From: Geobacter sulfurreducens PCA
GTDB taxonomy: Bacteria; Desulfobacterota; Desulfuromonadia; Geobacterales; Geobacteraceae
Direction: 5' to 3'
Assembly: GCF_000007985.2 (NCBI RefSeq)
Contig: NC_002939.5
Location: 3,210,001 to 3,242,000, forward strand
DNA: 32,000 bases
The notes under the pieces were generated by a model. That model saw nothing but the letters and a program-made list of their open reading frames with translations. It searched no databases and was not told the origin of the DNA. The translations under genes were made by a program, and so were the position numbers. Positions 7,005 to 30,606 of the stretch are shown here, one piece after another. The first letter of the stretch is position 1. Every line of letters begins with the position of its first letter.

Positions 7005-7538
7005 CTACTGAATCAACTGCTGAGACGATGTGGTTGCCTGCGTCCGCGCCCCCTGATTCTGCTGTCCGGCCGGGGCAACGATGGTGAACACCCACTTCTT
7101 GTACTGGTCCTGGTTCTCGAAGGTGGCCAGCTCATCGGGGAAGTTCGTCTTTTTGAGCGGCTCCTGCTCACTGGTGCTCATGACGCCGACGATCCCCTTG
7201 CCCGGCTGGACGATGGTCGCGAAATCCTTGCCGGTGATCGGGTCCTTGTAGAGCCGTCGCAGATACTTCTGCCGCGCGGCGCTCTGGGGATCCTTGAGGA
7301 GATCCTTCAGGTCATTGAGCGGCCTGGGGGCTCCTCCGCCCGATCTGGTCGGAGTGTGCCACTGCTCCAGGGCGATCCGGTACTGGTTCCCCCTGAACAG
7401 GAGCTCTTCCTCCCGCTCCCGCTTCATCACCATCTGCCAGCTCTGCCCCACGATCCCCAGCATGATTCCCATGACAATCACGATCATCAGGGCGCCGACA
7501 AAGGTGAAGCCGCCGGAGGATGCAAGGATTCTCCTCAC
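7005..7538 (-). CDS. GspG-like type II secretion / type IV pseudopilin with prepilin-type N-terminus
   Basis: GTG start 9 nt after the transketolase stop. Leader VRRILASSGG followed by FTFVGALMIVIVMGIMLGIV (G|F cleavage context plus a hydrophobic helix). C-terminal region YLRRLYKDPITGKDF...GKGIVGVMSTS resembles the GspG globular domain. Confidence 0.7.
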   Translation of the reverse strand: MRRILASSGGFTFVGALMIVIVMGIMLGIVGQSWQMVMKREREEELLFRGNQYRIALEQWHTPTRSGGGAPRPLNDLKDLLKDPQSAARQKYLRRLYKDPITGKDFATIVQPGKGIVGVMSTSEQEPLKKTNFPDELATFENQDQYKKWVFTIVAPAGQQNQGARTQATTSSQQLIQ

Positions 7539-7547
7539 CCTCGTTCC

Positions 7548-8492
7548 TCAGGGCCGCTTGCGCGTGAGCACCTCGCGCCCCGCCTCGGCCAGATCGGCCG
7601 GCATGAGTCCGAAATATTTCAGCAGTTCCTCGGCTTTGCCGGACAGGCCGAAGCGGTCATTAATTCCGACCCGCTTGAGGGGCACCGGACAGTTCTCCGC
7701 AAGGAATTCGGCAGCGGCCCCACCAAGCCCGCCCACTATGGAATGCTCTTCGGCGGTAACGATGGCACCGGTTTCTTGAGCGGCGCGCTGCAGAATCTCG
7801 CCGTCCAGAGGCTTGATGGTGGCCATATGGATCACCCGCGCCGAGATACCCTCCTGAGACAGGAGTTCCGCGGCGGCCAAAGCCTGAGCGGTCATGAGGC
7901 CGGTGGTTACGAAGGTCAGGTCCGTACCGTCCGCAAGCTGGACCCCTTTACCGATCTCGAAGGGAGTATCGGTCGAGGTGACGGTGGGGACCTTGTTGCG
8001 GCCCAGGCGTACGTATACCGGGCCGCGATGGGCGGCGGCGGCACGGATCGCCCTGGCCGTTTCCGGGCCATCGGCCGGGACGATAACCGTCATGTTCGGC
8101 ACCGCCCGCATGATGGCAATATCCTCCACCGACTGGTGGGAGCCACCGTCCTCGCCAACGGTGATGCCGCCGTGGGTGGCCACCACCTTGACGTTGGCCT
8201 TGGGATAGGCCAGCGACTGGCGAACCTGCTCCCAGGCCCGTCCCACGGCAAAGATAGCGAACGTTGATACAAAGGGGATTTTACCTGCCGCGGCAAGGCC
8301 CGCGGCCGTGCCGACCATATTGGCCTCGGCGATCCCCATATTGAAGAAACGGTCCGGGAATTTCTTGGCAAAGACCGACGTCTTGGTGGAGCCGGACAGG
8401 TCGGCGTCGAGGACGACGACACTGCCGTTCTCCTCTCCAAGTTCGGCGAGGGTCTGGCCGTAGGCGTCGCGGGTGGCGATCATGGTGCTCAT
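7548..8492 (-). CDS. transketolase, C-terminal (pyrimidine-binding) subunit of a split enzyme
   Basis: 314 aa with an ATG start. Motifs typical of Tkt domains II/III: DADLSGSTKT, FFNMGIAEANMVGTAAGLA, THGGITVGEDGGSHQ. Confidence 0.9.
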   Translation of the reverse strand: MSTMIATRDAYGQTLAELGEENGSVVVLDADLSGSTKTSVFAKKFPDRFFNMGIAEANMVGTAAGLAAAGKIPFVSTFAIFAVGRAWEQVRQSLAYPKANVKVVATHGGITVGEDGGSHQSVEDIAIMRAVPNMTVIVPADGPETARAIRAAAAHRGPVYVRLGRNKVPTVTSTDTPFEIGKGVQLADGTDLTFVTTGLMTAQALAAAELLSQEGISARVIHMATIKPLDGEILQRAAQETGAIVTAEEHSIVGGLGGAAAEFLAENCPVPLKRVGINDRFGLSGKAEELLKYFGLMPADLAEAGREVLTRKRP

Positions 8493-17671: not shown

Positions 17672-18544
17672 TCAGTTTTCGAGATTGACGCGAAAGAAAA
17701 GAACCAGCTTTGCCTTCTCTTCCTTGTTGAGGGGTACCGGTGACATGAGGGCGCCGGGACGGACGCTGCGGGGATTGTCGAGCCAGCGGCCGAGACGTTC
17801 GGGGGTCCAGGGCTCGCCCGGCTTGAAGGGGGTAGGGTAAAACGGGGAGAAGAGCCCGGAAAGGTTCGGCGCGACGGTGCCGGCACCCAGCCCTCCCTCG
17901 CCGGCGGTAAGGAGCCGGTGGCAGCCGCCGCACTTGGTGACGAACAGGTTGTCTTCCTTCGCGCGGACGGCCTCGAAGTGGACGACAAGAGGGACGGCAG
18001 CGGTCCCTTGTGCGGGAGCGGCCCCGGCAAAGGCCATGATGGCATTCACCACATCGGAGGCCCGGCGATCGTCGAACCGGAAGTCGGGCATGAAGAGAAC
18101 CGGCTGCCGGATTGCCACGAAGAGTCTCACCGGGTCATCGCCGACCAGACGGTCCAGGTCGGCGGCCAAGCGCGTCCCCGTTCCTCCCAGGCGATGGCAG
18201 CGGCGGCAGCCGAACCGCTCTGCCAAGCGCTTTCCCTCCTTCACCCGGACGCTGCCGGGAATCGTAAAATGAGACAGTTCCGCCGGCACGAGCCGATAGT
18301 GGGCGATGGCCAGACGCGTGCTTCTGCCGTTACCCCGGTGACAGGAGACGCAGGTGCCCTTTTCCGCATGGTGGGGGCGGTGGCAGGAGCGGCATCCCTC
18401 GCCCGGCGGCGGTCCGACGCAGGCGGACAGAAGAGCGGCGATCAGGATCAGAAGGGCCAGACGAGCGACCAATTCTCCCCCCGGAAGACCATGGCGAGCA
18501 CAGTCAGGGCTACAATGACGGCAAAGGCTCCCAGCGTGAGCCAC
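17672..18544 (-). CDS. tetrahaem c-type cytochrome, probable lipoprotein; cytochrome c subunit of the Rieske/cyt b complex
   Basis: CRSCH, CVSCH, CRRCH and CGGCH. The last two sit in class-I-like contexts with downstream Met. LLSAC is a lipobox-like sequence. The start is uncertain: ATG 18544 overlaps the upstream gene by 97 nt, while TTG 18472 overlaps it by 25 nt. Confidence 0.8.
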   Translation of the reverse strand: MAHAGSLCRHCSPDCARHGLPGGELVARLALLILIAALLSACVGPPPGEGCRSCHRPHHAEKGTCVSCHRGNGRSTRLAIAHYRLVPAELSHFTIPGSVRVKEGKRLAERFGCRRCHRLGGTGTRLAADLDRLVGDDPVRLFVAIRQPVLFMPDFRFDDRRASDVVNAIMAFAGAAPAQGTAAVPLVVHFEAVRAKEDNLFVTKCGGCHRLLTAGEGGLGAGTVAPNLSGLFSPFYPTPFKPGEPWTPERLGRWLDNPRSVRPGALMSPVPLNKEEKAKLVLFFRVNLEN

Positions 18545-18906
18545 GAGGAGGCGCGGTTACCCTCACCGAACCAGACGGCCCGCTCGGGCCGGTGCCTGCC
18601 AAGCCACGGCATGAGCAGGAACCAGAGAGAGAGGGCCACAATGCCCCAGGCGAAGCCGTTGCCGTGGCTCACGACCTCCTGGGTCCAGAGGAGAAACCAG
18701 GCCGATTTGGCCGGGTTTGGCGGGGCGGCCGGGTTGGCGGGGGCCAGGAGCGGCGCGGGGACAACCAGGGCGAGGAGCGCCAGCAGGAGCAGTCCGGCGG
18801 CAAAGGCCCGTTTGACCGGACGGAAAAAGTAGGGAGAACTCCGGACGTATTCCCCGCCACCCCGGGGCCCGCGGCGCAGGTCCCGCTCCGGTTCACCGCA
18901 ATGCAT
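18448..18906 (-). CDS. cytochrome b C-terminal / subunit-IV-like membrane protein (3 TM)
   Basis: Only the 3' part of track ORF 18448..19299 is used. ATG at 18906 lies 27 nt after the cyt b stop. PNPAKSAWFLLWTQEVV resembles the PEWY-type quinol-site motif of subunit IV. Three hydrophobic helices. Confidence 0.7.
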   Translation of the reverse strand: MHCGEPERDLRRGPRGGGEYVRSSPYFFRPVKRAFAAGLLLLALLALVVPAPLLAPANPAAPPNPAKSAWFLLWTQEVVSHGNGFAWGIVALSLWFLLMPWLGRHRPERAVWFGEGNRASSWLTLGAFAVIVALTVLAMVFRGENWSLVWPF

Positions 18907-18932
18907 AGGTTCTCTCACGGCATCCGCTCCTC

Positions 18933-19553
18933 TCACAGATAGGGAAGCAGCCCCTTGGTCTTGCGTACCCGGTAGAAATGGAGAAACGACAGCCCCATGA
19001 TGCCCAACGGAACGATGACCACGTGCAGGGCGTAGAAGCGCAGGAGCGATAGAGACTCTCCCACCCCGTCGGGAACAAGGACGGCCCGGAGCCAGCCGCC
19101 GCCCGGAAAGGTGGCCAGCAACTCCATGCCGGTACGGGTGGCCCAGAAGGCCAGTTGGTCCATGGGGAGCAGATAGCCGGTGTATGCCTCGAACACCGAC
19201 AGTCCCAGGAGTCCCACCCCCACCACCCAGGTCAGTTCGCGGGGCGGCCGGAAGGCACCGGTGAGCACGACCCGCAGGATGTGGAGGAACATCAGACAAA
19301 GGAACCCGTGGGAGGCAAGCCGGTGAAGCGCCCGCAGGTACTTTCCCCCCACAACCGTCGACTCCAGGAACAGAATCGAATCAAAGGCCCGGTCGGGGGT
19401 CGGCTGGTAGTAGAACAGCAGCAGTACCCCGGACACGATCAGGGCGAAGAATGCCGTAAAGGCGAGTCCGCCCAGACAGAATGTGTAGCTGAACCGCAGG
19501 TTCTCCCGCAGGACCACCCGGGGGAAGAGATGTTTGGCGAATTCCTTGATCAT
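18933..19553 (-). CDS. cytochrome b6-like protein (N-terminal four-helix, dihaem b)
   Basis: 206 aa. Conserved His pairs in helices B and D (RALHRLASHGF.., FYALHVVIVPLGIMGLSFLHF). Its ATG overlaps the Rieske stop (ATGA). Confidence 0.9.
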   Translation of the reverse strand: MIKEFAKHLFPRVVLRENLRFSYTFCLGGLAFTAFFALIVSGVLLLFYYQPTPDRAFDSILFLESTVVGGKYLRALHRLASHGFLCLMFLHILRVVLTGAFRPPRELTWVVGVGLLGLSVFEAYTGYLLPMDQLAFWATRTGMELLATFPGGGWLRAVLVPDGVGESLSLLRFYALHVVIVPLGIMGLSFLHFYRVRKTKGLLPYL

Positions 19554-19945
19554 CCGATGACAATCTCCACCCGCTCGCCCCGGTCCTCCACCCGATGGCG
19601 GGCCAGGGGACGGTCGGCGGGACCTTTGGCAACGTTTCCCTTCAGGTCGAAGCGGCTGCCGTGACAGGGACAGACAATCTCCGACGGCGTGACGGTTACC
19701 GTGCAGCCCAGATGGGTGCAGGTGAGGTCAAGGGCATAGAGCGTATCCCCATCCCTCATGACCGCCAGGTGCCGTTCCTTGAACACAAGGGCGCCCCGTG
19801 GGGGGATCGATGCCTTGGCAACGGTGAATCGCTCTCCCCCGCCCCGCCCCGCGGGAACGAGAAAGCGCCACGCCGCCGCCAGCGAGGCCGTGAATGCGGC
19901 TAACGCCGCGATGAACCGCCGGCGTCCCCGGTCAAATCCCGCCAT
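19550..19945 (-). CDS. Rieske [2Fe-2S] protein with twin-arginine signal
   Basis: Internal ATG at 19945 of track ORF 19550..20470. MAGFDRGRRRFIAALAAF is a Tat motif. The cluster boxes CTHLGC and CPCHGS are present. 131 aa. Confidence 0.9.
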   Translation of the reverse strand: MAGFDRGRRRFIAALAAFTASLAAAWRFLVPAGRGGGERFTVAKASIPPRGALVFKERHLAVMRDGDTLYALDLTCTHLGCTVTVTPSEIVCPCHGSRFDLKGNVAKGPADRPLARHRVEDRGERVEIVIG

Positions 19946-21165
19946 CGTTCCAGATACCCTTTCGTGTATTCGGGGGTCCGCACCCCCATGCGCCGCACCC
20001 GCTCCGGCTCCATGAACGTACCGTTGGCAATCCGCTGGCCGGTGCGGTCCCAGAAGGAATCGAGAGAAAGGCCATCGGCCCGGGTCCGGTAGATCCGCTC
20101 GTGGGGCGGTTCCAGCAGAAAGCGCCGCGGGTTGTCGTGACAGCCGTCGCACATGACCGTTTCGCGCCGGATGGTGTGAGGGGCGAAGGTCTTCCAGCGG
20201 GCTGCCAGGAGCCGGTTCTCCTGCCCCACTACCCGTTCGTTGCGGAAATCCGAATGGTAAAGGATGAACTGGGGCCGGGCCGGGCTCACCCGCCCCGCTT
20301 CGTTGAGCGCGAGGGGGGGGGCGTCCTGCCGCTTGAGATAGGCACTCTTTACCCAGTCGTCCTGACGGGTGACCACCTGGAAGCGGGACTGGAGCCGGGG
20401 GCTGTTGGTGAAGCGCAGCCAGAAGGTACCGTACTCCTGGGGTGCCCACGCGGCATGGCAGGCAACGCATTCGAGCCGGTCCTGGTGGGCGGCGATGCGG
20501 TGTTCAACCACCCGCGGATCCGGCGTGTGACAGTCGGTGCACCTCTTTGCGGTCCGCTTGCCGGCAGCCAGGCTCGCCATGGAGTGGCAGTCGGCGCACC
20601 CCATCCCTGCCTCGGCATGGACGTCGGGCAGCATGGGGAGGAAGGTCTCGCCGTTGGCCAGCTCACCCCGCTGGTAGCGCAGGGCATCCTCCCGGGGCGC
20701 CCGGCCGTGGTAGTCGGTGCCCACGAAGTAGCCCCGGTGGCAGGAGAGACACTGGGCATCCCGGGGGCGGGCCAAGGCATGGCCGCCGCCGGGATGGCAG
20801 TCGAGGCAGCCCGTTACGTGGCAGCCGCCGCACTGGTTGCGGAAGAATGCTCCGTCGGCTCGCCCCAGGGTATCGGCCACGAAGCGCCGTTCCGCGCTCC
20901 GGGTGGTCATGGGGTGGTCGAAGAGACGGTCGTATCCACGGTGGCAAGCCACGCACCGGGCGGCGCGGTCGGCCACGAGTGCCGGGTTGCGCACAGTGGC
21001 CCGGTCGTCGCCGTGGCAGGGGGAACAGCCGATGCCTGCATGGGGGCCGGTAAGGACATCCCGATGGCAGACGCGGCAATTTTCGCCCGTGGCGGCGTCA
21101 GCGGGCCACGGCGCGACCGGCGCTGCCAGTAAGCAGGCGGCGATGCAGAGCATCATCCAGCGCAC
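19900..21165 (-). CDS. decahaem c-type cytochrome (periplasmic)
   Basis: 421 aa. GTG start (ATGs also at 21156 and 21153). Signal peptide ..MMLCIAACLLAAPVAPWPADA. Ten CxxCH motifs: CRVCH, CSPCH, CVACH, CGGCH, CLDCH, CLSCH, CADCH, CTDCH, CVACH, CDGCH. Confidence 0.85.
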   Translation of the reverse strand: MRWMMLCIAACLLAAPVAPWPADAATGENCRVCHRDVLTGPHAGIGCSPCHGDDRATVRNPALVADRAARCVACHRGYDRLFDHPMTTRSAERRFVADTLGRADGAFFRNQCGGCHVTGCLDCHPGGGHALARPRDAQCLSCHRGYFVGTDYHGRAPREDALRYQRGELANGETFLPMLPDVHAEAGMGCADCHSMASLAAGKRTAKRCTDCHTPDPRVVEHRIAAHQDRLECVACHAAWAPQEYGTFWLRFTNSPRLQSRFQVVTRQDDWVKSAYLKRQDAPPLALNEAGRVSPARPQFILYHSDFRNERVVGQENRLLAARWKTFAPHTIRRETVMCDGCHDNPRRFLLEPPHERIYRTRADGLSLDSFWDRTGQRIANGTFMEPERVRRMGVRTPEYTKGYLERWRDLTGDAGGSSRR

Positions 21166-22969
21166 GATAGTCGAGCTCCTTGCGGTAGATGGGATCGTCG
21201 GCCCGGGTGTGGCAGACGATGCAAAGGTTTGCCCGCCAAACCCGTTTTGCCTCCGTGTCGTTCAGGGGGCGTGAGTTCTCGCGGGTGATGGCGGAGAATG
21301 CCCGTACCAGACCACCCTCCATGGTCTGGAAACCGTCCAGGGGCTTCGCTTCGTTCTTGGTACAACGCAATGTGCCATCGATCCGCCCTTTTCCCGTCAC
21401 ATGCTGGCCAAAGCCGAGGAAGGCGGGGTTGGCGTGGCATTCGCCGCAGCCGATGGCCCGTTCGCCGGTGTTATGGGAGTAGAACGGCGCGAACCGGAGC
21501 TGCTTTTTCCCCTTGAAGGTAGAGACGTAGCCCTCCCGGGACAGGGTGCCGTCCGGCTCCACCACGGTGACGAACGTCTGGCAGCCGGGGGTGACCGGCG
21601 CAATGCCCCCGCGCTGGTTCAGAGCCAGGGGAAAGGGATAGAGCATCCGGTAATCCTCGGTTTCCGTGAAGAGCCCGGGGGTGTCCATTCCCTTGATGAA
21701 GTCGGTGCCGGTGCGGCCCTTGTCGTATTTCGTATGACAGCCGTAGCATTGGGGGACCGCCCGGGAATGGCAGGCGGTGCATTCGAGCCGGTCGTGTCCG
21801 ACCACGGTGTGGGCCGGGGAGCCGGTAATGACCTTGCTGGTGAATACCCTGCCGCTCCGCTTGCCGAGCACCGCAACCCTGCCATCCTTCACGAAGACAT
21901 TTGAGTAGGGGCGCCCCTTGGCGGTAACGATCATGCGCATGCCCGGCCGCATCTGCACGGGGTAGCGGGCCGACTCCCGCACCGCCTCCTCGTTCTCCCG
22001 CACGATCTCCCGCCAGCGGGGCGGCGAAGTTGCACTGCCGTGGCAATCCTCGCAGCGAATCTCCACCTGGTGGTAGAGGTTCTCGTAGGCATAACCGTCA
22101 CCCATGATGTCGCGGGAGGTGTGGCAGTCGATGCACTCCATCCCCCGGGCGTGGTGAATGTCGGGAGGGATGCTCGTCACGTTCCGGTTGCCGCTGGTGA
22201 GCTGGGGGCCCGGGAAGCCTCCCCTGGTCGGCACGAGACCGTTGTTGCCGTCGTTCAACCCCAGGTAGGAGAGAGCGATGCGGCCGCTGCGGTTGTGGCA
22301 GCGGAAGCAGACGTCGTTGCCGGGGAGCCCTTCCATCCGGTGGCTGGACGCGGCGGGCCCACGCAGTCGCATGGTCAGGTCGCTGCCCTCATAGGCGGAA
22401 TCGGCATTGCGGGGAAAGTGGCAGGCCGCGCAGCCGGAGCCGTGCCCCACGCCCCAGGCATAGCGGTTTTCGATCCCCACGTGGCAGAGGGAGCAGAACT
22501 TGCGGTAGAGCTCCCCCGAGAGGTTGTTCAGTTCGGCCACGCCGTTGACCCTGACCCGCTTCCCCTCTGCGTCGTAAAGGTCGTCCTGCCGTGCTCCGTA
22601 GCGCCGGCCATCCTCCCCTTCCCAGGTAAGCTGGATATTCCTGATGATCCCCGTATTGGTATACATGAGTCCCGAGCGGACCCGGCCCAGCTGATAGGGG
22701 TGGCAGGCACCGCAACTCTTTTCCCAGACAGCCGGGTCCGAGGGGTTCCGCGGGGCGAACATGGTCCGGTGGGCGTCCTCTTTGCTCCGGGCCCGGCCGT
22801 CGCCGCCGTGGCAGGAGACACAGGAGGGATGGGCCGGTGAGGCGTGCTCGATCTTCCCGTGGCAGGAGAGACACGAGGCGTTCTCTCCCCCGCTGCTGCC
22901 GCACCCGGCAGCACTAAGGAACATAACGGCGACCGCCAGCATGAGAACGACGTCGGAAATCCTGTTCAT
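21098..22969 (-). CDS. dodecahaem c-type cytochrome, lipoprotein
   Basis: Internal ATG at 22969 of track ORF 21098..23071 gives MNRISDVVLMLAVAVMFLSAAGC (lipobox). Twelve CxxCH motifs: CLSCH, CVSCH, CGACH, CSLCH, CAACH, CFRCH, CIDCH, CEDCH, CTACH, CYGCH, CGECH, CIVCH. Confidence 0.85.
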   Translation of the reverse strand: MNRISDVVLMLAVAVMFLSAAGCGSSGGENASCLSCHGKIEHASPAHPSCVSCHGGDGRARSKEDAHRTMFAPRNPSDPAVWEKSCGACHPYQLGRVRSGLMYTNTGIIRNIQLTWEGEDGRRYGARQDDLYDAEGKRVRVNGVAELNNLSGELYRKFCSLCHVGIENRYAWGVGHGSGCAACHFPRNADSAYEGSDLTMRLRGPAASSHRMEGLPGNDVCFRCHNRSGRIALSYLGLNDGNNGLVPTRGGFPGPQLTSGNRNVTSIPPDIHHARGMECIDCHTSRDIMGDGYAYENLYHQVEIRCEDCHGSATSPPRWREIVRENEEAVRESARYPVQMRPGMRMIVTAKGRPYSNVFVKDGRVAVLGKRSGRVFTSKVITGSPAHTVVGHDRLECTACHSRAVPQCYGCHTKYDKGRTGTDFIKGMDTPGLFTETEDYRMLYPFPLALNQRGGIAPVTPGCQTFVTVVEPDGTLSREGYVSTFKGKKQLRFAPFYSHNTGERAIGCGECHANPAFLGFGQHVTGKGRIDGTLRCTKNEAKPLDGFQTMEGGLVRAFSAITRENSRPLNDTEAKRVWRANLCIVCHTRADDPIYRKELDYRALDDALHRRLLTGSAGRAVAR

Positions 22970-23032
22970 GGCATGGTTCGCTCGATGACGCACGGGGGCA
23001 ATGGTACCACAGAATGCGGGCAAAGGTCCCTG

Positions 23033-23066
23033 CAAAAAAGGGCCGGCAGCGGTTCGGCTGCCGGCC
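23033..23066 (-). terminator. rho-independent terminator after the pentahaem cytochrome gene
   Basis: Minus strand reads GGCCGGCAGC-CGAACC-GCTGCCGGCC (10-bp perfect stem) followed by CTTTTTTG. It lies 29 nt after the TAG at 23095-23097. Confidence 0.75.
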
Positions 23067-23094
23067 ATCACATGAAGGAGGTGCTGCGTGGGTG

Positions 23095-24447
23095 CTACTT
23101 GCCCTTGGCGCTGATGCTCACCTTCTGGGTGAACTCATGCCAGAGGAACGGATCGGAATTCATTGAACCGAAGGGGAGATACCAGAGTTTCACCTCCACT
23201 TCCAGATCGTGGGCCAGGGTCTTGCGAACCTTCTTCCCGTCCTCCACCACATCCTCGGTGGGGAAGAGGATATCGAAGCGCTCGTGGATCTTCTTGCCCG
23301 GCGGCAGACCCGTATCCTCGATCATACCGCTTTTCTCATAGGGGCCGCGCCCCATCCGGTCACCCCGGGCCAGCTGCTGGGGCACCGGCATGTAGATCTT
23401 TTCCTGATTGAACACTTCTTCGCCGTCTTTTGTCTTTGCAATGACCGACAGAACCAGTCGGTTGGGGGTCGGTCAGCCATCGGGGATCGAGTGGCCCGCG
23501 TGATTGGTCATCTCGACCTTCACCACTGCCTTGGGCGTCACCAGCGCCCCGTCCCGCCAGTGATAGCCATAGGCCTCGGCCTTGAACTCAACGGCGGCCT
23601 TGGCCATGCCCGGGTCACGGTAGCTCTGCATGTTGTGCCCGAGCTTGCTCTTCTTCATGTGGCATTCCTGGCAGTTTTCCCGCCCGCCCTCGGCCTTGTA
23701 GGCCCAGAGGTAGCTCGCATAGCTGGTGCAGCACTGGGTCGGGTTATCCAATTCCAGGTTCGGCCCCAAGCCGTGGCATTGGCCGCACTGGATGGACTCT
23801 GACATGATCGGACTGACCTTCATCGTGGGGAATGCCGCAGAGGGGTGTTCCCCTTCCTTGGAGCCGTAGACTACCCCGGCCTGGGGATAGCCGTCGGTCC
23901 ACTTGTGGGTGATGGCGTTACGGTTATGGCAAACGAGGCAATTGATGTTGAGGCTCTTGAGCTTGTCGGCCTCTTCAACCGCCTTTGCCGAATCCTTTTT
24001 CCTCAGTGCATCCTGCCAGCTGCCGATGGTGGAGATGATCTCCTTGGCCACCGAGTCCTCGGCGTCGGCCAGTTGGGGGAGATGGCACTTGGCGCATCCC
24101 ATCAGGTGCTCAACTTTCACGTCCGACGGGCTTTTCACCCCCGAATATTCCCATTCCATGAGGCCGTTGACCACAGCAGTCATGAAGGTGGCGGCAGTCC
24201 GGCCGGTACCGAAGATTGAGCGGGCATGGATCGACTGCTCCCATTCATCGTGGACTTCCTGGTGACACTCGATGCAGGAGCTGGAATCATACATCTTTGC
24301 CAACTCGGCCATGGTCTTTGCCTTGCCGCTCTTGGCAACGATCGTCTCCTGCCAGCCGATGCCCGCCTTTTCGGCAAAAACCGGTGCGGCGGCACAGAGC
24401 GCAAGCGCTGCGGCAGCAAGGGTCAGCCATGCGGTTTTGTGCTTCAT
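23095..24447 (-). CDS. pentahaem c-type cytochrome with C-terminal beta-rich domain; contains one in-frame TGA (23475-23473): candidate selenocysteine codon, or else a disrupted gene
   Basis: Track ORFs 23473..24447 and 23095..23415 are in the same frame, and the TGA is the only stop between them. Signal peptide MKHKTAWLTLAAAALALCAAAPVFA. Haem motifs CIECH, CAKCH, CLVCH, CGQCH and CQECH. The reading continues ..MTNHAGHSIPDG-TGA-PTPNRLVLSVIAKTKDGEEVFNQEK.. There is no RBS before the track's GTG at 23415. A terminator follows only the second ORF. Confidence 0.65.
23443..23475 (-). promoter_or_regulatory. 33-nt hairpin starting at the in-frame UGA (SECIS-like candidate)
   Basis: Minus strand: UGACCGAC-CCC-AACC-GACU-GGUU-CU-GUCGGUCA. 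This gives an 8-bp lower stem that includes the UGA, an internal loop, a 4-bp upper stem, and an apical tetraloop beginning with G. Confidence 0.45.
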
Positions 24448-24510: not shown

Positions 24511-24543
24511 AAAAAGAAACCTCCCCGCCCCAGGACGGGGAGG
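24511..24543 (-). terminator. rho-independent terminator after the small secreted protein gene
   Basis: Minus strand reads CCTCCCCG-TCCTGGGG-CGGGGAGG followed by TTTCTTTTT. It lies 17 nt after the TAG at 24560-24562. Confidence 0.7.
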
Positions 24544-24559
24544 CGGTCATAACAACCGA

Positions 24560-24874
24560 CTAGCAGCCCTGGAGAGCGTCGCCGGCGGATTCGGAGATGG
24601 TCATGGAAGAGTCCGTCTTGATCTTGGCAGCCTTGGCCTTGCCGAACTTGAGGACGACTTCGTCGCCTTTCACCTCGACAATGGTCGGCATACCGCCGCT
24701 GGCCTGAACATGGGCGCCCTTCTTGGCCCAGGCGGGTACTTTCTCGGCCTTGACGGTAACCTTCTCGCCATCAACCTTGACGACCTTCCCCGAGAAGGAG
24801 CCGGCGGCAAAGGCGAATGCCGCCATGGAAAGGGCCACGAGAGCCGCCGCGATCGACATCATGATCTTCTTCAT
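24560..24874 (-). CDS. small secreted protein ending in a C-terminal cysteine (..DALQGC-stop)
   Basis: ATG with AGGAGG 8 nt upstream. Signal peptide MKKIMMSIAAALVALSMAAFAFA. The mature part is about 80 aa, Lys/Val-rich and beta-like (KVVKVDGEKVTVKAEK..IVEVKGDEVVLKFGK). The only Cys is the last residue. Confidence 0.75.
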   Translation of the reverse strand: MKKIMMSIAAALVALSMAAFAFAAGSFSGKVVKVDGEKVTVKAEKVPAWAKKGAHVQASGGMPTIVEVKGDEVVLKFGKAKAAKIKTDSSMTISESAGDALQGC

Positions 24875-24913
24875 TGTTCTTACCTCCTGCGTGTGGTTGT
24901 GCTGCGCTCAGCC

Positions 24914-26134
24914 CTAGAAAAGGAGCTGGAGCTGGGTGATGAACGTGGTGAAGTCCTCGCTCTTGACTCCGTTGTACGTGCCTTCCTTGTCGAAGTCGGT
25001 CTTGCTGATCTCGGCCGTCAGTTTCAGGTTCTGGCCCCAGATGTAGTAGTTGGCGCCGACGCCGTACCAGTTGATGTCCTGGTCCACCACATTGTTGAGG
25101 CTGGCGAAGCTCCACCGCTCGTAGCGGCCGAAGATCTGGAGCGGGAAGTTGGGGAGCATGTAACCGGCCTTGGCATACCAGCCGTTTTTCTCGCCGTTGA
25201 GGCCAATGGCACCGCTGTCCACATTGGTGGATACGGTATATGCGTCATCCATGCTGAAGTCGGCGTAGGCGGCAGAAGCGGTGATGGTGCCGAAGCCTTC
25301 GACCGGATACTCGAAATAACCGTCAACAGTCCAGGCGGTGTAATCCTTGGAGTCGGACTGAGTGGCGGCATTGCCATAAGCGACGTTCGGCTCGTACTGA
25401 ACCCCGGCGCCCACGGTCAGGACCTGCTTCTCGCCCATGTAGGTACCCTTGTAGCCGTAATCCTTCTCGGGATCGAGCAGTGTCACGTGAGCGCGGGCCG
25501 TATAGCGGAAGTTCGAATCAGGCGAAGAATAGCCGTTGGCATCCCGGTCGCCGGCCTTGCGGCCTTCCATCGCGTCGAGGCGATACTGGAAGACGTCGTT
25601 GAACAGGTTACCCCAGACCGCCACACCCACGTCGCGGGTCGAAACATAGGGGGCGCGGATAAAGAGGGACCGGTCCAGGGTCAGAGGCATTTCGCACGCT
25701 TCGAGATTCTCACGGGTCAGGTTGTGCTTGAATTTACCCACATTGACCCGGAACCCATCGTGGAATTTGAAACGCATAACGGCGTCGAGAAGCTGGAACT
25801 CCGTGTCGGCGCTGTTGTCGCCGACTCCGAGGGTACCCACGTTGGGATCTTCGGTGAATTCGGTCTGAACATAAAGGCTCAGCATATCGCCGTACTTGCC
25901 CATAAAGGCGAGACGGTTGCGGCGGAAGTTGAAGTTGGTGGTGGTATCGTCACCGTTGGCGCCGGAGCCGTTGTCGCGGATCGACATCTGGAACTGGCCC
26001 TTGTAGTCGATCTGGAGGGCGCCCTGGTCTTCGGGGCCAAAGGTGATCCGGGGACCGGCGAACGCCGTGCCGGCCAGGAGGGCCGTACCGAGGGCGACGC
26101 CGGAGATGGTCGATATCTTGCGCATATTCATCAT
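24914..26134 (-). CDS. outer-membrane beta-barrel porin, OprO/OprP (phosphate-selective porin O and P)-like
   Basis: 406 aa. Signal peptide ..ALGTALLAGTAFA. Alternating amphipathic strands. FNFRRNRLAFMG and LLDAVMRFKF are typical of porin O_P. C-terminal aromatic signature ..ITQLQLLF. Confidence 0.8.
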   Translation of the reverse strand: MMNMRKISTISGVALGTALLAGTAFAGPRITFGPEDQGALQIDYKGQFQMSIRDNGSGANGDDTTTNFNFRRNRLAFMGKYGDMLSLYVQTEFTEDPNVGTLGVGDNSADTEFQLLDAVMRFKFHDGFRVNVGKFKHNLTRENLEACEMPLTLDRSLFIRAPYVSTRDVGVAVWGNLFNDVFQYRLDAMEGRKAGDRDANGYSSPDSNFRYTARAHVTLLDPEKDYGYKGTYMGEKQVLTVGAGVQYEPNVAYGNAATQSDSKDYTAWTVDGYFEYPVEGFGTITASAAYADFSMDDAYTVSTNVDSGAIGLNGEKNGWYAKAGYMLPNFPLQIFGRYERWSFASLNNVVDQDINWYGVGANYYIWGQNLKLTAEISKTDFDKEGTYNGVKSEDFTTFITQLQLLF

Positions 26135-26161
26135 GCATTCGCTCCTTTTAATTGAGAAGTC

Positions 26162-26181
26162 CCCCGCCCCGAGGGGCGGGG
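26162..26181 (-). other. GC-rich intercistronic hairpin between the rhodanese and porin genes
   Basis: CCCCGCCCC-GA-GGGGCGGGG (realistically a 7-bp stem with a 6-nt loop). On the minus strand it is followed by GACTTCTCAATT. Possibly a partial attenuator or stability element. Confidence 0.4.
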
Positions 26182-26201
26182 ATCAAGAACGTCGCTCACT
26201 G

Positions 26202-27608
26202 CTAGCAGCCACCGCCACCGGTCGAGCCGCCACCACCGGTCGTACCGGTAACGGTGCTGCGGTAGGCCCTGTCGGCATCTTCAATCTGGTTGCCTTGCGC
26301 GAAGCTCGGCTCAACCCCGAAGACCCGGGACGTGTAGTTGATAATAGGCCGCTGGGCAAGATTCGTGGTGCTGATGGTCCGCCCAACGTTCCAGGTCAGG
26401 TTGTCGGTCAGGAGGGTGGTGTCCCAGATAGACCCGACGGCCAGCTTGCCGCCGGCATTGACCGTAGCGCCGGTCGTATCGGTGGCGGTATGGCTCGACG
26501 AGGCCATCAGGTTCCATTGACCCAGCGAGCCGTCATACCATTTGACGTCAACGTTGGAGTTGTAGTAGGCGATGCCGTCAAGTGCGAAATAGGCCACGGA
26601 TGCAGCGTTGCCGGCCCGACAGAAGACGATGAAGGTCTTTGCAGAATCGCGGTTCGCATCCCCCAGGGTGGTAACACCGTCTCCGGCCACTGCGGCACTG
26701 ATGTCGGTTTGCAGGGTTGCCGCGTCTTTGAAATAGAGAGTGCTTGCAGGCGAAACCACGTTGGCGTACGGGAAGCGGTACGAGCCCTTGATGGCGCCGT
26801 CGAACGGAGTATAGAAGTTGCCGTCGAGGAGGTCCGTTGTCGAGGACACCGTGCCGGGACGAATCGTGTCAAGAATAAAGACTTTGTTTGCGTTACCGGC
26901 AACGACTCCCTGAACATAGGCGATCATCTCGGGCAGGGAGACGCGCATGTCGGTGTTTACCCGGCTCGTGCCGTTCTGGGCCACACCGTAAGTTGACTTC
27001 TGGATCGTCGGCACGGCCGTGGTCAGCGAATAACCCGCGGCAACCCAGGCGGGGTTTCCGCCTTGCAGAACCTTAAGACGGGCTTTGGGGAAGCCCCAGT
27101 AACGGAACGTCGTGTACGCCCGCGCCACGTTGATGGTGTTGTTGGCGTTATTGGTGAGCACGATGGTCGTATTTCCGTCGATGCCCGCGTTTTGAATCAG
27201 AGCGTCCATGGTTGCGCCGGTGCAGACCATGTTGCCCGTGACACTCAGGGGCCCTTCAGCACGGGTATTGTCCTGGAAAGCATTCGCTCCGGCAGAAATC
27301 AATTGTGCCCCGGGGATGTGTCCGACGGTGTTGTATTTGTTGGAACCATCGGTTTCATTGCTGGAGACGTCGAGAATCACAACGCGGTCGTAGCTTCCGC
27401 TCGCCTTGTTCACCAGTCCTGCGTCAATCCATGCCTTGAGTTGCTCTGCTGTTACCAGGGCATTGGCCGTCTGCATCGTGACGGCAGATGTGGCCGGCTG
27501 ATCATAGCCCCCGCCACCGCAGCCCCACAGAGTGAGCAGCGTCAGCGCAACAACGCCGAGCATGCTCGCCAGCATGACACGTCCCTTTCTCCATGCCTGT
27601 TTCGCCAT
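26202..27608 (-). CDS. tandem-rhodanese-domain lipoprotein (sulfurtransferase-like) with Gly-rich C-terminal tail ending in Cys
   Basis: ATG with AAAGGAGG 4 nt upstream. Lipobox LTLWGC. The first rhodanese-like domain lacks a catalytic Cys (TTIVLTNNANN). The second has the active-site loop FIVFCRAGNAAS. The C-terminus is TVTGTTGGGGSTGGGGC-stop. Confidence 0.8.
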   Translation of the reverse strand: MAKQAWRKGRVMLASMLGVVALTLLTLWGCGGGGYDQPATSAVTMQTANALVTAEQLKAWIDAGLVNKASGSYDRVVILDVSSNETDGSNKYNTVGHIPGAQLISAGANAFQDNTRAEGPLSVTGNMVCTGATMDALIQNAGIDGNTTIVLTNNANNTINVARAYTTFRYWGFPKARLKVLQGGNPAWVAAGYSLTTAVPTIQKSTYGVAQNGTSRVNTDMRVSLPEMIAYVQGVVAGNANKVFILDTIRPGTVSSTTDLLDGNFYTPFDGAIKGSYRFPYANVVSPASTLYFKDAATLQTDISAAVAGDGVTTLGDANRDSAKTFIVFCRAGNAASVAYFALDGIAYYNSNVDVKWYDGSLGQWNLMASSSHTATDTTGATVNAGGKLAVGSIWDTTLLTDNLTWNVGRTISTTNLAQRPIINYTSRVFGVEPSFAQGNQIEDADRAYRSTVTGTTGGGGSTGGGGC

Positions 27609-27878: not shown

Positions 27879-28814
27879 ATGGATTTGATCCTTCTTAATA
27901 CTTTTATAAAGGTCGCGACCATCGGCAGCATCTCAAAGGCTGCAGGGCTGCTTTGCGTCACCCAGTCCGCGGTTTCGCGACGCATCAAGTTGCTGGAAGA
28001 ACACTACGGCCGCCCCCTCCTGGAGCGTACCGGAACCACGCTGAGACCCACCCCTGCCGGAAAAATGCTGATCGAAAAGGCCAAGTCGATCCTTGACATC
28101 GAGCGCCAAATTCTCGACAGCCTTGGTGTCAAGGAAACGAGGCAGAAGATATCCTTCTGCTGCACCCCGTCCTTCGGCATCGGCAGCCTTCCGGCAATCC
28201 TCGACTCCTTTCTGGCCGACAAAGGGGAGAAAACAGATCTCAAGTTCGTTTTCGCCATGCCCGAGGAGGCTCTTGACGGGATCAGAAGCGGCAGGTTCGA
28301 TCTCGCCCTCATCGAGCACTGCGACGATCTTGACCTGAACGGCTACCGGACGTATCCGCTCCCCCCCGACGAGATGATCTTCATCAGCGCCCCCGCGCGC
28401 GGCATCGACATGCCTGCACCGGACATCGACCGGTTGCTGGGGGAGCGGCTCTACCTCAAGAACGAAACCGGTTGCGCCAAACGTTTTCTCGACCGGAACA
28501 TGCGCTCCATCGGGCGCGACGGCAACGAGTTCGTCAACACCGTATACTTTGACGACTGCCCGTTCATCCTCAGCCAGGTACGCGCCGGCAACGGCATCGC
28601 CTTTGTCTCGGCAACGATCGTTCAGGCCGAGCTTCGCGCCGGCACACTGCGCGCACACCGGATCGCCGGATTCGACCCGTTCCGTCCCCGCACCATTGTA
28701 TTCAGCCCGCACATGGAGTGTTCTCCCGCTATTCACGCCTTCACTGAAACGCTCTTTGCAGCCCACGACATCCCCTCCTCCGCTGCCCTGTTCTCCTCCC
28801 GGCGCACCCGGTAA
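27879..28814 (+). CDS. LysR-family transcriptional regulator
   Basis: 311 aa. N-terminal w[42 protein letters not shown], then a LysR substrate-binding fold. Divergent from the rhodanese operon. Confidence 0.9.
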
Positions 28815-28971: not shown

Positions 28972-30606
28972 ATGCGCGTTATCAGGAACTTGCATCTGAG
29001 CACAAAACTGGTGGCGGGTTTCGTACTCGTGGCCGTTATAGCAGGATTGGTCGGCCTCATCGGCACCCTGAAGATCCGCGTCATGGAAACGGCCGGCACT
29101 GAAATGTACGATCTGGTTACCGAACCCCTCGGCACCATGGGCGGAGTGGCCATCGCCTTCCAGAAGGCACGGGTCAACATTCGCGGCATGATCCTTGACG
29201 ACAATCCCGCCCGAGCCCAGGCCAACGCAAACTCCATCGCCAAGTTCTACAAGGAGATCGACGAAGGGCTGGCGGATTTCGGCAAGAGCATCCTCAGCAA
29301 AGATATCCGGCAGGAATTCGACGCCCTCAGAAACACCATCGCTGAGTATGCACCGGTGCGGGAAGAAATCGTCACCGCGACCCTTGACGGAGACCGGGAA
29401 ACAGCGCTGGCTCTCATGCGGAGCCAGGGGCTGGCCTTCGAAAAGAAGATCGATGAATCGATCAAGAAGCTCTTCGACATGAAGATCGCCGGGGCGAAAA
29501 AGCGAAAAGACATGAATGCGGCAGCGGCACAAAGCGCACTGACCCAGATGATGCTTCTTGCCCTCATCGGCATGGTTGTCGCCGTGGTCCTCGGCCTCTT
29601 TGTCTCTCGCCAGATCACGGTACCGCTCAGGAAGGTCGTAGACTTTGCCCAGGCCATCGCCCAGGGCGACCTGGCTCACCGCCTGGATATGGAACAGAAT
29701 GACGAGACCGGGCAACTGGCCGAGGCCGTCAACACCATGGCGGATCGGCTCAACCGGCTCATTGCCGGCGTGGCCGAAAATGCATCCCAGGTGGCGGCGG
29801 CGGCGAGCCAGCTCACCTCCAATGCAGAGCAAATGGCGACCGGCGCGGAGGAGGTGGCGGCACAAACCGGTACCGTGGCCACGGCCAGCGAGGAAATGGC
29901 GTCCACCTCGGCGGAGATCGCCCAGAACTGCACCGCCGCTGCTGAAGAGTCCCGACGGGCAAGCGATACGGCGGTCCAGGGTTCGGAGGTCATTCGCCAT
30001 ACGGTCGGCGAGATGGAGCGAATCGCCGAGCGGGTCCGCGAGACGGCCAGAACCGTGGAAAGTCTCGGGGCCCGGAGTGATCAGATCGGTGAAATCATCG
30101 GCACCATTGAGGATATCGCCGACCAGACGAACCTTCTGGCCCTGAACGCGGCCATCGAGGCGGCCCGGGCCGGTGAACAGGGGCGCGGCTTCGCCGTGGT
30201 CGCCGACGAGGTCCGGGCACTGGCGGAGCGGACATCCCGCGCTACCAGGGAAATCAGTACCATGATCAAGGCGATCCAGCAGGAGACCAAGGGGGCCGTC
30301 GCCTCCATGGAGCAGGGGGTGCGGGAAGTGGAACGCGGCACGGCCGAGGCATCCCAGTCGGGCAAGGCCTTGGAAGAGATCCTGGAGCAGGTGGGCTGTG
30401 TGACCATGCAGATCAACCAGATAGCAACGGCAGCCGAGCAGCAGACCTCGACCACGTCGGAGATCAGCGGCAACATCCAGCAGATTACCGATGTGGTTCA
30501 GCAGACGGCCCGGGGTGCCCAGGAAACCGCGGCGGCCGCGCGGCAACTCTCGCAGCTGTCGGCAGAGCTGCAGCACCTGATCGGCCAGTTCCATCTCGCA
30601 GCCTGA
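28972..30606 (+). CDS. methyl-accepting chemotaxis protein (4-helix-bundle periplasmic sensor, HAMP, MA domain)
   Basis: Internal ATG at 28972 of track ORF 28549..30606, with AGGAGAGGAG upstream. TM1 [19 protein letters not shown] and TM2 [23 protein letters not shown] domain. Highly conserved signalling hairpin [34 protein letters not shown]. Confidence 0.9.

Follow-up and report, generated by a model that had tools for sequence, protein, structure and literature searches.

Conserved cysteines in ExtH, ExtI and ExtJ of Geobacter sulfurreducens suggest a thiol relay for sulfur or selenium

The proteins ExtH, ExtI and ExtJ of Geobacter sulfurreducens PCA are encoded by a trio of minus-strand genes, which was analysed within a 32,000-nucleotide stretch of contig NC_002939.5 (positions 3,210,001 to 3,242,000), called here the window and numbered from its first letter. 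ExtH is a rhodanese-like lipoprotein and ExtJ a small secreted protein, and both end in Gly-Cys; ExtI, encoded between them, is a porin with an invariant cysteine in a segment modelled as a loop. In our estimate there is a probability of about 55% that the trio is a thiol relay, which captures polysulfide sulfur or selenium for delivery to a periplasmic reductase. The three proteins probably represent the substrate-acquisition front end of the ext operon, with a reductase whose type can be swapped between the haem and selenocysteine enzyme MccSep and a molybdopterin enzyme of the Psr/Phs type.

The products of the three genes match AAR36332.1, AAR36331.1 and AAR36330.1 exactly (GSU2940-2938), and the NCBIfam equivalog models for ExtH, ExtI, ExtJ, ExtKL and ExtM all score far over their cutoffs. 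The trio is therefore the known extH, extI and extJ, at the head of extHIJKLMNOPQS, the "selenite/tellurite reduction operon" of the NCBIfam naming. An earlier note made from the DNA letters (the original prediction) had taken the trio for a system not yet described, which was wrong, but its readings of the three genes, namely the Gly-Cys-stop ends, the active-site loop and the lone cysteine of ExtJ, hold.

ExtH (extH, GSU2940; positions 26202..27608; 468 residues; NCBIfam NF040901, 577.2 bits with a cutoff of 200) combines a lipoprotein signal with a rhodanese active-site cysteine, and extI is the next gene. By sequence, the lipobox reads LWGC (27519..27530), with Cys30 as the lipidated residue, and is followed by a GGGG tether, and the active-site loop CRAGNAA comprises residues 330-336 (26601..26621), starting with Cys330. 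The proposal of an inactive plus an active rhodanese domain fits the sequence: the N-terminal domain has Thr/Asn at the position where the C-terminal domain has Cys330, and only the N-terminal domain is picked up by Pfam. The nearest solved relatives are ordinary tandem-domain rhodaneses (PDB entry 1uar, SseA type), with weak E-values. Published work on the ext genes calls ExtH a rhodanese-like lipoprotein (Jimenez Otero 2018; Jahan 2018), and its outer-membrane localisation depends on ExtI, according to the account of Jahan 2019 given in a review (PMC8981825).

The protein ends in an arm, TVTGTTGGGGSTGGGGC (residues 452-468; 26205..26255), which lies outside the span of the NCBIfam model (residues 8-449) and carries Cys468 at its tip, directly before the stop codon. 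A C-terminal cysteine is present in 120 of the 120 ExtH homologues listed (46-100% identity), preceded by Gly in 115 and by Asn in 5, and a Cys-ending arm is also found in three ExtH-like proteins of 30-35% identity (loci L022, L029 and L030). Among 120 aligned sequences, including these three, Cys30, Cys330 and Cys468 are invariant and Cys129 is not, and the lipobox is kept in 118. The active-site loop follows the pattern C[RL][AS]GNxA in all 120 listed homologues; one of the 30-35% identical proteins has a different loop, CVSGMSC. The arm starts after a conserved AYRS motif and is 14-19 residues long (median 17 over the 120 homologues), with a composition of 46% Gly, 16% Ser, 15% Thr and 10% Ala; it has no internal Cys, and charged, aromatic and large hydrophobic residues together account for just 2%. 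It occurs as 107 distinct sequences among the 120, and the last four residues are GGGC in 107. The drift of the arm sequence, while its length, composition and tip stay fixed, is the signature of a flexible tether.

ExtJ (extJ, GSU2938; 24560..24874; 104 residues; NCBIfam NF040942, 82.8 bits with a cutoff of 52.5) has a Sec-type signal peptide and a flexible tail, SAGDALQGC (24563..24589), whose last residue, Cys104, is the only cysteine of the protein and precedes the stop codon. Unlike the arm of ExtH, this C-terminus is included in the NCBIfam model, which is matched end to end (positions 1-77 of 77). The AlphaFold2 model of the core (residues 26-95) is a six-stranded β-barrel with a predicted local distance difference test score (pLDDT) of about 90, and the last three residues fall below 50. 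Its neighbours in the PDB are generic barrels (the N-terminal domain of the F1-ATPase α/β subunits and riboflavin synthase, E of about 1e-3). No SoxY, DsrC or TusA was among the fold-search neighbours, and a profile search of PDB sequences with ExtJ was empty; Pfam gives a faint CusF-like match (E = 0.036), and the UniRef label is DUF5666. ExtJ has been described as a small protein of unassigned function (PMC5877670) and as a small periplasmic protein (PMC6148476).

The Gly-Cys end is kept in 53 of 55 close ExtJ homologues, down to 52% identity, with G103 and C104 as invariant columns; of the two exceptions, one is frameshift-like and the other, of 178 residues, lies on a 724-nt contig. Conservation of the terminal cysteines was the test that the original prediction had set for itself, and both ExtH and ExtJ pass it. 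A profile search run exhaustively over 1.84 billion cluster representatives (50% clusters) yielded 90 distant small relatives; 63 of them end in Gly-Cys, one ends in another residue followed by Cys, and in 12 a Cys stands among the last four residues. The ExtJ-type barrel domain also occurs in tandem, in 3-19 copies, in most of 16 large proteins (432-3868 residues; P0299, P0300, P0310, P0318 and P0321 among them), so that the small Gly-Cys-ended proteins are one branch of a wider domain family. In one of the large proteins, P0337, no ExtJ-type stretch exceeds the threshold, and a C-terminal Cys was not seen in the printed ends of the 16.

Both extH and extJ terminate in GGC TGC TAG, a 9-mer that has no other occurrence on either strand of the window. 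Among the 254 six-frame open reading frames of at least 60 codons in the window, 13 end in Cys and three in Gly-Cys, two of the three being extH and extJ. The original prediction had pointed to the identical nine nucleotides, which are indeed present, but the codons for the terminal Gly and Cys and for the stop all vary freely in orthologues. Selection therefore acts on the Gly-Cys-COOH end of the peptide and not on the DNA; the shared GGCTGCTAG was rejected as a DNA-level element, and by sequence its identity in strain PCA is a coincidental codon choice.

ExtI (extI, GSU2939; 24914..26134; 406 residues; NCBIfam NF040900, 704.9 bits with a cutoff of 150) belongs to the Pfam family Porin_O_P. 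Its AlphaFold2 model has about 16 strands at a moderate pLDDT of 69.5, and the best PDB neighbours found by Foldseek are OprO (4rjw) and OprP (2o4v), with E of about 2.5e-13, a TM value of about 0.6 and 16-17% identity, in agreement with the OprO/P-like porin that had been read between the two genes. Single-sequence and profile searches of PDB sequences with ExtI did not reach OprP and returned only spurious antibody matches. Cys147 (codon 25694-25696; motif RENLEACEMPLTLDRS) is kept in 19 of 19 loci and in 121 of 121 homologues; no part of the protein is better conserved than the stretch around it, and in 113 of 120 the mature protein has no other cysteine. A 32%-identical ExtI-like porin from a Psr-type operon keeps the equivalent cysteine as its only one (RGNLDGCFDPLGIDRS). 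In the model, strands 5 and 6 are joined by 30 residues without strand structure (residues 137-166; 25637..25726; pLDDT of the segment below 50), and Cys147 is one of them. Classical porins have their L3 constriction loop at this point, and the model would thus place Cys147 in a constriction loop at the L3 position. As to the substrate, the title of Jahan 2019 names selenite for ExtI, and deletion of extI impairs both selenite reduction and tellurite reduction (PMC5877670).

Related loci were collected by a scan of genome contigs, which gave at least 21 loci and is a sample rather than a census; L021 (Alcaligenaceae, 43% identity over 56 residues) had no ext matches and was left out. The order H-I-J-K(UGA)L-M, with both Cys ends intact, is kept in the listed loci of Geobacter, Geotalea, Geomonas, Citrifermentans and Geomobilimonas. 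The module, as H-I-J or I-J, precedes MccSep in L001-L020, L022 and L025, with variation in detail between loci. In L022 the order is a TetR gene, an ExtH-like protein (..SGC), ExtI, a 78-residue ExtJ (..MLQGC), ExtK-UGA-L, M, N, a Rieske protein and a cytochrome b, and in L025 an ExtJ-like gene is followed directly by an MccSep-like gene. Elsewhere the module stands ahead of or among PhsA/PsrA-like, iron-sulfur and NrfD genes (L029, L030 and L032/L033). Thus L029 encodes two ExtH-like proteins (the second ending ..ALGGC), ExtI, an ExtJ-like protein (..MLQGC), a PhsA/PsrA-like molybdopterin subunit, a 4Fe-4S subunit, NrfD, ExtM and ExtN; L030 encodes an ExtH-like protein (..GGGC), ExtI, two ExtJ-like proteins (..SLQGC and ..DMQGC) and a PhsA/PsrA-like subunit; and L032/L033 encodes PsrA-like and PsrB-like proteins, a divergent ExtI-like porin, an ExtJ-like protein (..SAGC) and NrfD.

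Secreted rhodaneses recur beside ExtJ-like proteins that have no porin (L014, L026, L028 and L035). In L014, a soluble tandem rhodanese with a signal peptide and no Cys tail precedes ExtJ (..LQGC) and ExtK, with no porin in the 6.4 kb upstream; in L026, an ExtJ-like protein and a secreted rhodanese stand beside the C-terminal part of a "Sulf_transp" protein of the YedE/YeeE type (Pfam E = 4e-9); and in L028 and L035-L037, ExtJ-like proteins ending ..CGT or ..CG are followed by secreted multi-domain rhodaneses of 575-588 residues. A rhodanese, a periplasmic chalcogen reductase or both adjoin the module in nine of nine informative distant contexts. ExtI is the next gene after an arm-bearing ExtH in 19 of 19 loci, and the three complete rhodaneses without an adjacent porin have no Cys tail. 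The YedE/YeeE-type transporter fragment of L026 (positions 2-160) also ends in Cys (..VEKTTC-stop). In Geotalea (L003 and L004), extJ is duplicated, with one copy before extK and one before extM, and in L030 a tandem pair precedes the PsrA-like gene; the intact duplicates end in LQGC or MQGC, and the second copy in L003 is frameshifted. An extra secreted protein of about 113-130 residues lies between extI and extJ in L003 (2476-2868), L004 (2533-2913) and L010 (6598-6939), and not in the window; it contains ..ITYRSG..QT.RL.., ends in ..EWAQPLE or ..EWAPPVE, and has no family match.

The candidate recipient of the cargo is encoded downstream. ExtKL has been shown to be MccSep, a pentahaem selenoenzyme that is tetrameric, has both polysulfide and selenite as substrates of reduction, and is required for the respiration of elemental sulfur (S0) (PMC13510729, Sci Adv, August 2026; Mihara 2026). 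That paper explicitly leaves open the route by which substrate reaches the enzyme and does not discuss the ext operon. Its findings, together with the extI deletion phenotype (PMC5877670), agree with the guess in the original prediction that the trio handles a sulfur or selenium species.

In the proposed relay, ExtI would admit an anionic chalcogen species, either polysulfide or selenite. ExtH, whose place at the outer membrane depends on ExtI, would take sulfane sulfur or selenium on Cys330 and pass it to Cys468, at the tip of the uncharged, Gly-rich arm of about 17 residues. Periplasmic ExtJ would carry a persulfide, polysulfide or selenotrisulfide on Cys104 and hand it to the periplasmic reductase, which would be MccSep (selenocysteine Sec325 and Cys239) in this operon and, in other lineages, a molybdoenzyme of the Psr/Phs type. 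Cys147 of ExtI, in the predicted loop at the L3 position, is probably involved in capturing the cargo or handing it on. The thiols would thus carry the chalcogen covalently, in this order and direction. A more elaborate version, which we regard as doubtful, places ExtH on the cell surface, where Cys330 would be loaded with sulfur from S0 or polysulfide, and threads the slender arm into the ExtI pore, to Cys147 on the constriction loop, from which the terminal Cys of ExtJ would take up the sulfur on the periplasmic side and insert it into MccSep at Sec325/Cys239. If this trans-outer-membrane version were true, four thiols and one selenol would move sulfur or selenium by thiol exchange rather than by free diffusion, and ExtJ-like Gly-Cys proteins would be widespread, hitherto unrecognised periplasmic sulfur carriers for haem and molybdenum reductases.

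Several points weigh against a relay of this kind. In vitro, free polysulfide is turned over by MccSep with neither ExtH nor ExtJ present (PMC13510729), and a carrier is therefore not needed for catalysis. The published phenotypes of extHIJKL deletion concern metals only (PMC6148476), and no adduct, transfer assay or point mutant for ExtH or ExtJ was found in the literature, the coverage of which did not extend to the 2019 ExtH paper. The position of Cys147 depends on the strand order of the model and on the overall fold match, with a loop pLDDT below 50, and the facing of ExtH, towards the cell surface or the periplasm, is only inferred. The adjacent ExtH is missing from L010, which keeps ExtI and ExtJ, and from L032. 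In L006, from a metagenome-assembled genome, an unrelated Tat-signal "putative redox-active" protein with a C_GCAxxG_C_C motif (7378-8229) replaces ExtKL after extJ and before extM, and may be a third kind of partner of the module. Finally, 14 of the 90 distant ExtJ-fold proteins lack the terminal Cys; many of these, though not all, are short or have aberrant tails.

The same cysteines could serve purposes other than transfer. They might act as structural staples, in permanent disulfides such as Cys468 of ExtH or Cys104 of ExtJ with Cys147 of ExtI, tethering or plugging the porin without any cargo. Such a role would account for the dependence of ExtH localisation on ExtI, as reported in the review cited above (PMC8981825), for the single conserved cysteine of ExtI, located in a loop, and for the position of ExtI next to arm-bearing ExtH in 19 of 19 loci. 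We nevertheless consider it unlikely, as the terminal Cys is kept in ExtJ-like proteins that have no porin nearby and a soluble rhodanese as sole partner (L014, L028 and L035), two ExtJ paralogues facing one porin Cys (L004 and L030) do not fit a 1:1 pairing, and a stable disulfide would be expected to be fragile in a sulfide-producing periplasm. A chaperone function for selenium, a metalloid or a metal, with thiols that take up selenium in order to make selenoproteins or detoxify selenite, or take up another thiophilic ion, and that supply no sulfur to respiration, is similarly improbable in our judgement. The operon encodes a selenoprotein and is named for selenite/tellurite reduction in NCBIfam, both of these reductions are impaired by deletion of extI (PMC5877670), and the faint CusF-like match of ExtJ points the same way. 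Yet the module is linked equally often to Psr/Phs-type sulfur reductases, rhodaneses and the YedE/YeeE sulfur transporter, and MccSep is induced by S0 and has its role in S0 respiration; this explanation moreover overlaps the proposed relay, in which the cargo may be either sulfur or selenium.

Far less probable than either is that the terminal Gly-Cys is a modification or sorting signal by which the proteins would be lipidated, cleaved or cross-linked to the envelope, for instance to anchor ExtH a second time. Mature ExtH is symmetric at its ends, with C-GGGG at the start and GGGG-C at the finish, and its N-terminus matches the NCBIfam "lipo-invert C-terminal anchoring domain" at 16.6 bits, below the cutoff of 37. 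However, neither terminal Cys is preceded by a hydrophobic segment, and a conserved modifying enzyme was not seen beside the module in the loci examined. We know of no bacterial machinery that lipidates a free C-terminal Cys. The published description of ExtJ as a small periplasmic protein (PMC6148476) also speaks against such a signal. That the two Gly-Cys ends are a coincidence or an annotation artefact can be set aside with near certainty: although Cys-ending reading frames are not vanishingly rare in GC-rich DNA, as the 13 in 254 counted here illustrate, the ends persist in hundreds of homologues, the most distant at 30-35% identity, while the codons vary freely, and conservation refutes the idea.

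A thiol relay for polysulfide sulfur or selenium is accordingly the reading that we prefer. Several of its elements appear to be new, namely the Cys-tipped arm of ExtH, the Gly-Cys hallmark of ExtJ-like proteins, the loop Cys of ExtI, and the coupling of one module to both MccSep- and Psr-type reductases; in the ext and MccSep literature covered, which does not include the 2019 ExtH paper, no mention was found of the terminal cysteines, the arm or Cys147 as functional. The question of substrate delivery to MccSep becomes testable, with four invariant cysteines to address in a genetically tractable organism for which halo, sulfide and selenite assays are established. If the carrier reading is true, ExtJ-like proteins would form a new family of carriers for sulfur or selenium in the periplasm, common to haem-selenocysteine and molybdopterin polysulfide reductases within the Desulfobacterota and outside them, ExtI would be the first case of a porin whose pore holds a thiol for catalysis or selectivity, and extHIJKL would leave the category of electron conduits for that of substrate-delivery systems.

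The rest of the operon and its regulator surround the trio in the window. A terminator-like hairpin lies in the gap between extJ and extKL (24519..24544, minus strand), with an 11-bp stem that includes 8 G-C pairs, followed by the T-run TTCTTTTTAT; its fold energy is -25 kcal/mol (z = -2.4), and it is a putative terminator. It separates extJ from extKL, and extHIJ may therefore be transcribed or attenuated apart from extKL, in agreement with the report that a cassette insertion in extI is non-polar on the downstream genes (PMC5877670). Another GC-rich hairpin, without a T-run, is found 3' of extH (26158-26178). The gene for MccSep, extKL (mccSep, GSU2937-2936; 23095..24447, minus strand), encodes a pentaheme selenocysteine polysulfide reductase and is matched by the NCBIfam ExtKL model on both of its open reading frames (24447..23476 and 23472..23095), which are joined by an in-frame TGA at 23473-23475 on the minus strand. 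The context of this codon, ..SIPDG-TGA-PTPNR (23490-23458), is identical to the published selenocysteine peptide of MccSep, ..SIPDG-U-PTPNR (PMC13510729). A stem-loop resembling a selenocysteine insertion sequence, which is the one published for MccSep, follows directly (about 23438-23477), but its folding energy is not separable from that of shuffled sequences (z = -1.1), and the assignment of selenocysteine insertion follows from the published peptide, the hairpin energy alone not being discriminating.

Further along the minus strand, extM, extN, extO (Rieske), extP (cytochrome b), extQ and extS (17672..23071), all assigned by NCBIfam equivalog matches, make up the electron-supply part of the operon. 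On the other side of extH, a divergent gene on the plus strand (27879..28814) encodes a LysR-family regulator that matches the "multiheme cytochrome-associated LysR" model NF041036 with 311 bits and, below threshold, a "selenium metabolism-associated LysR" model; a LysR regulator has been described 5' of ext clusters (PMC6148476). A methyl-accepting chemotaxis protein gene follows it (about 29000-30606, plus strand), and L030 and the Geotalea loci likewise have a gene of this kind flanking the module.

The closest comparison is with the ext cluster as published (Jimenez Otero 2018; Jahan 2018, 2019), which is the same locus, the remainder of the operon also being present in the window. The cluster was originally listed among putative electron conduits of the outer membrane (PMC6148476). 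In contrast to the sheaths of MtrCAB and Pcc conduits, which have at least 20 strands, ExtI is modelled with about 16 strands and the size of OprP, and a rhodanese takes the place of a cytochrome as its outer partner. From the model, an OprP-like barrel of this size would be too small to sheath a cytochrome; an Mtr-like role for ExtI was therefore rejected, and the system is unlikely to be a conduit of the Mtr type. The phosphate and polyphosphate porins OprP and OprO of Pseudomonas aeruginosa share the Pfam family of ExtI and are its best structural neighbours, but differ in sequence, as the low identity shows, while ExtI has the invariant cysteine at the predicted L3 position.

Sulfur is carried on cysteines of flexible C-terminal arms in SoxY and DsrC. 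What the trio would share with SoxY is sulfur bound covalently to a cysteine on a mobile, Gly-rich peptide at the C-terminus. In SoxY, this Cys is internal to the motif GGCGG, on an Ig-like sandwich, and the partner is SoxZ; by contrast, ExtJ ends in ..LQGC and ExtH in ..GGGGC, with Cys as the last residue, and ExtJ is a six-stranded barrel. Pfam, NCBIfam and fold searches gave no SoxY match, and the NCBIfam scan of the operon found no SoxZ-like gene, so that the resemblance to the SoxY arm that had been noted earlier would be one of function and fails for fold and motif. The comparison with DsrC and TusE concerns a small protein whose flexible C-terminal arm, with a near-terminal Cys, enters the active site of a reductase and leaves loaded with sulfur. 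DsrC, however, is cytoplasmic and helical and has two arm cysteines, whereas ExtJ is secreted and all-β with a single Cys, and no DsrC match was obtained in the Pfam and fold searches.

The Sud protein of Wolinella succinogenes delivers polysulfide sulfur to PsrABC, and a likeness to Sud had already been drawn in the original prediction. In both systems, a periplasmic rhodanese-type Cys feeds, or would feed, a respiratory polysulfide reductase, and the analogy is reinforced by the loci in which ExtH/I/J or I/J lie at or in PsrABC/Phs-like operons (L029, L030 and L032/L033), in some of them ahead of these enzymes. Sud is a soluble, single-domain homodimer without an arm; ExtH, on the other hand, is a lipoprotein of the tandem-domain type whose arm is tipped with Cys, it is accompanied by a dedicated porin and a further small carrier, and it thus does not have the single domain of Sud. 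The reductase of Geobacter also differs from Psr, as it is a haem and selenocysteine enzyme and not a molybdoenzyme. The tests of sequence, fold and motif place the trio outside the Sud, SoxY and DsrC families, and the likeness to them is a working one. With conserved thiols encoded ahead of a swappable polysulfide or selenite reductase, Sud-like capture followed by hand-off on Cys-tipped peptides would be the most economical account of ExtH, ExtI and ExtJ.

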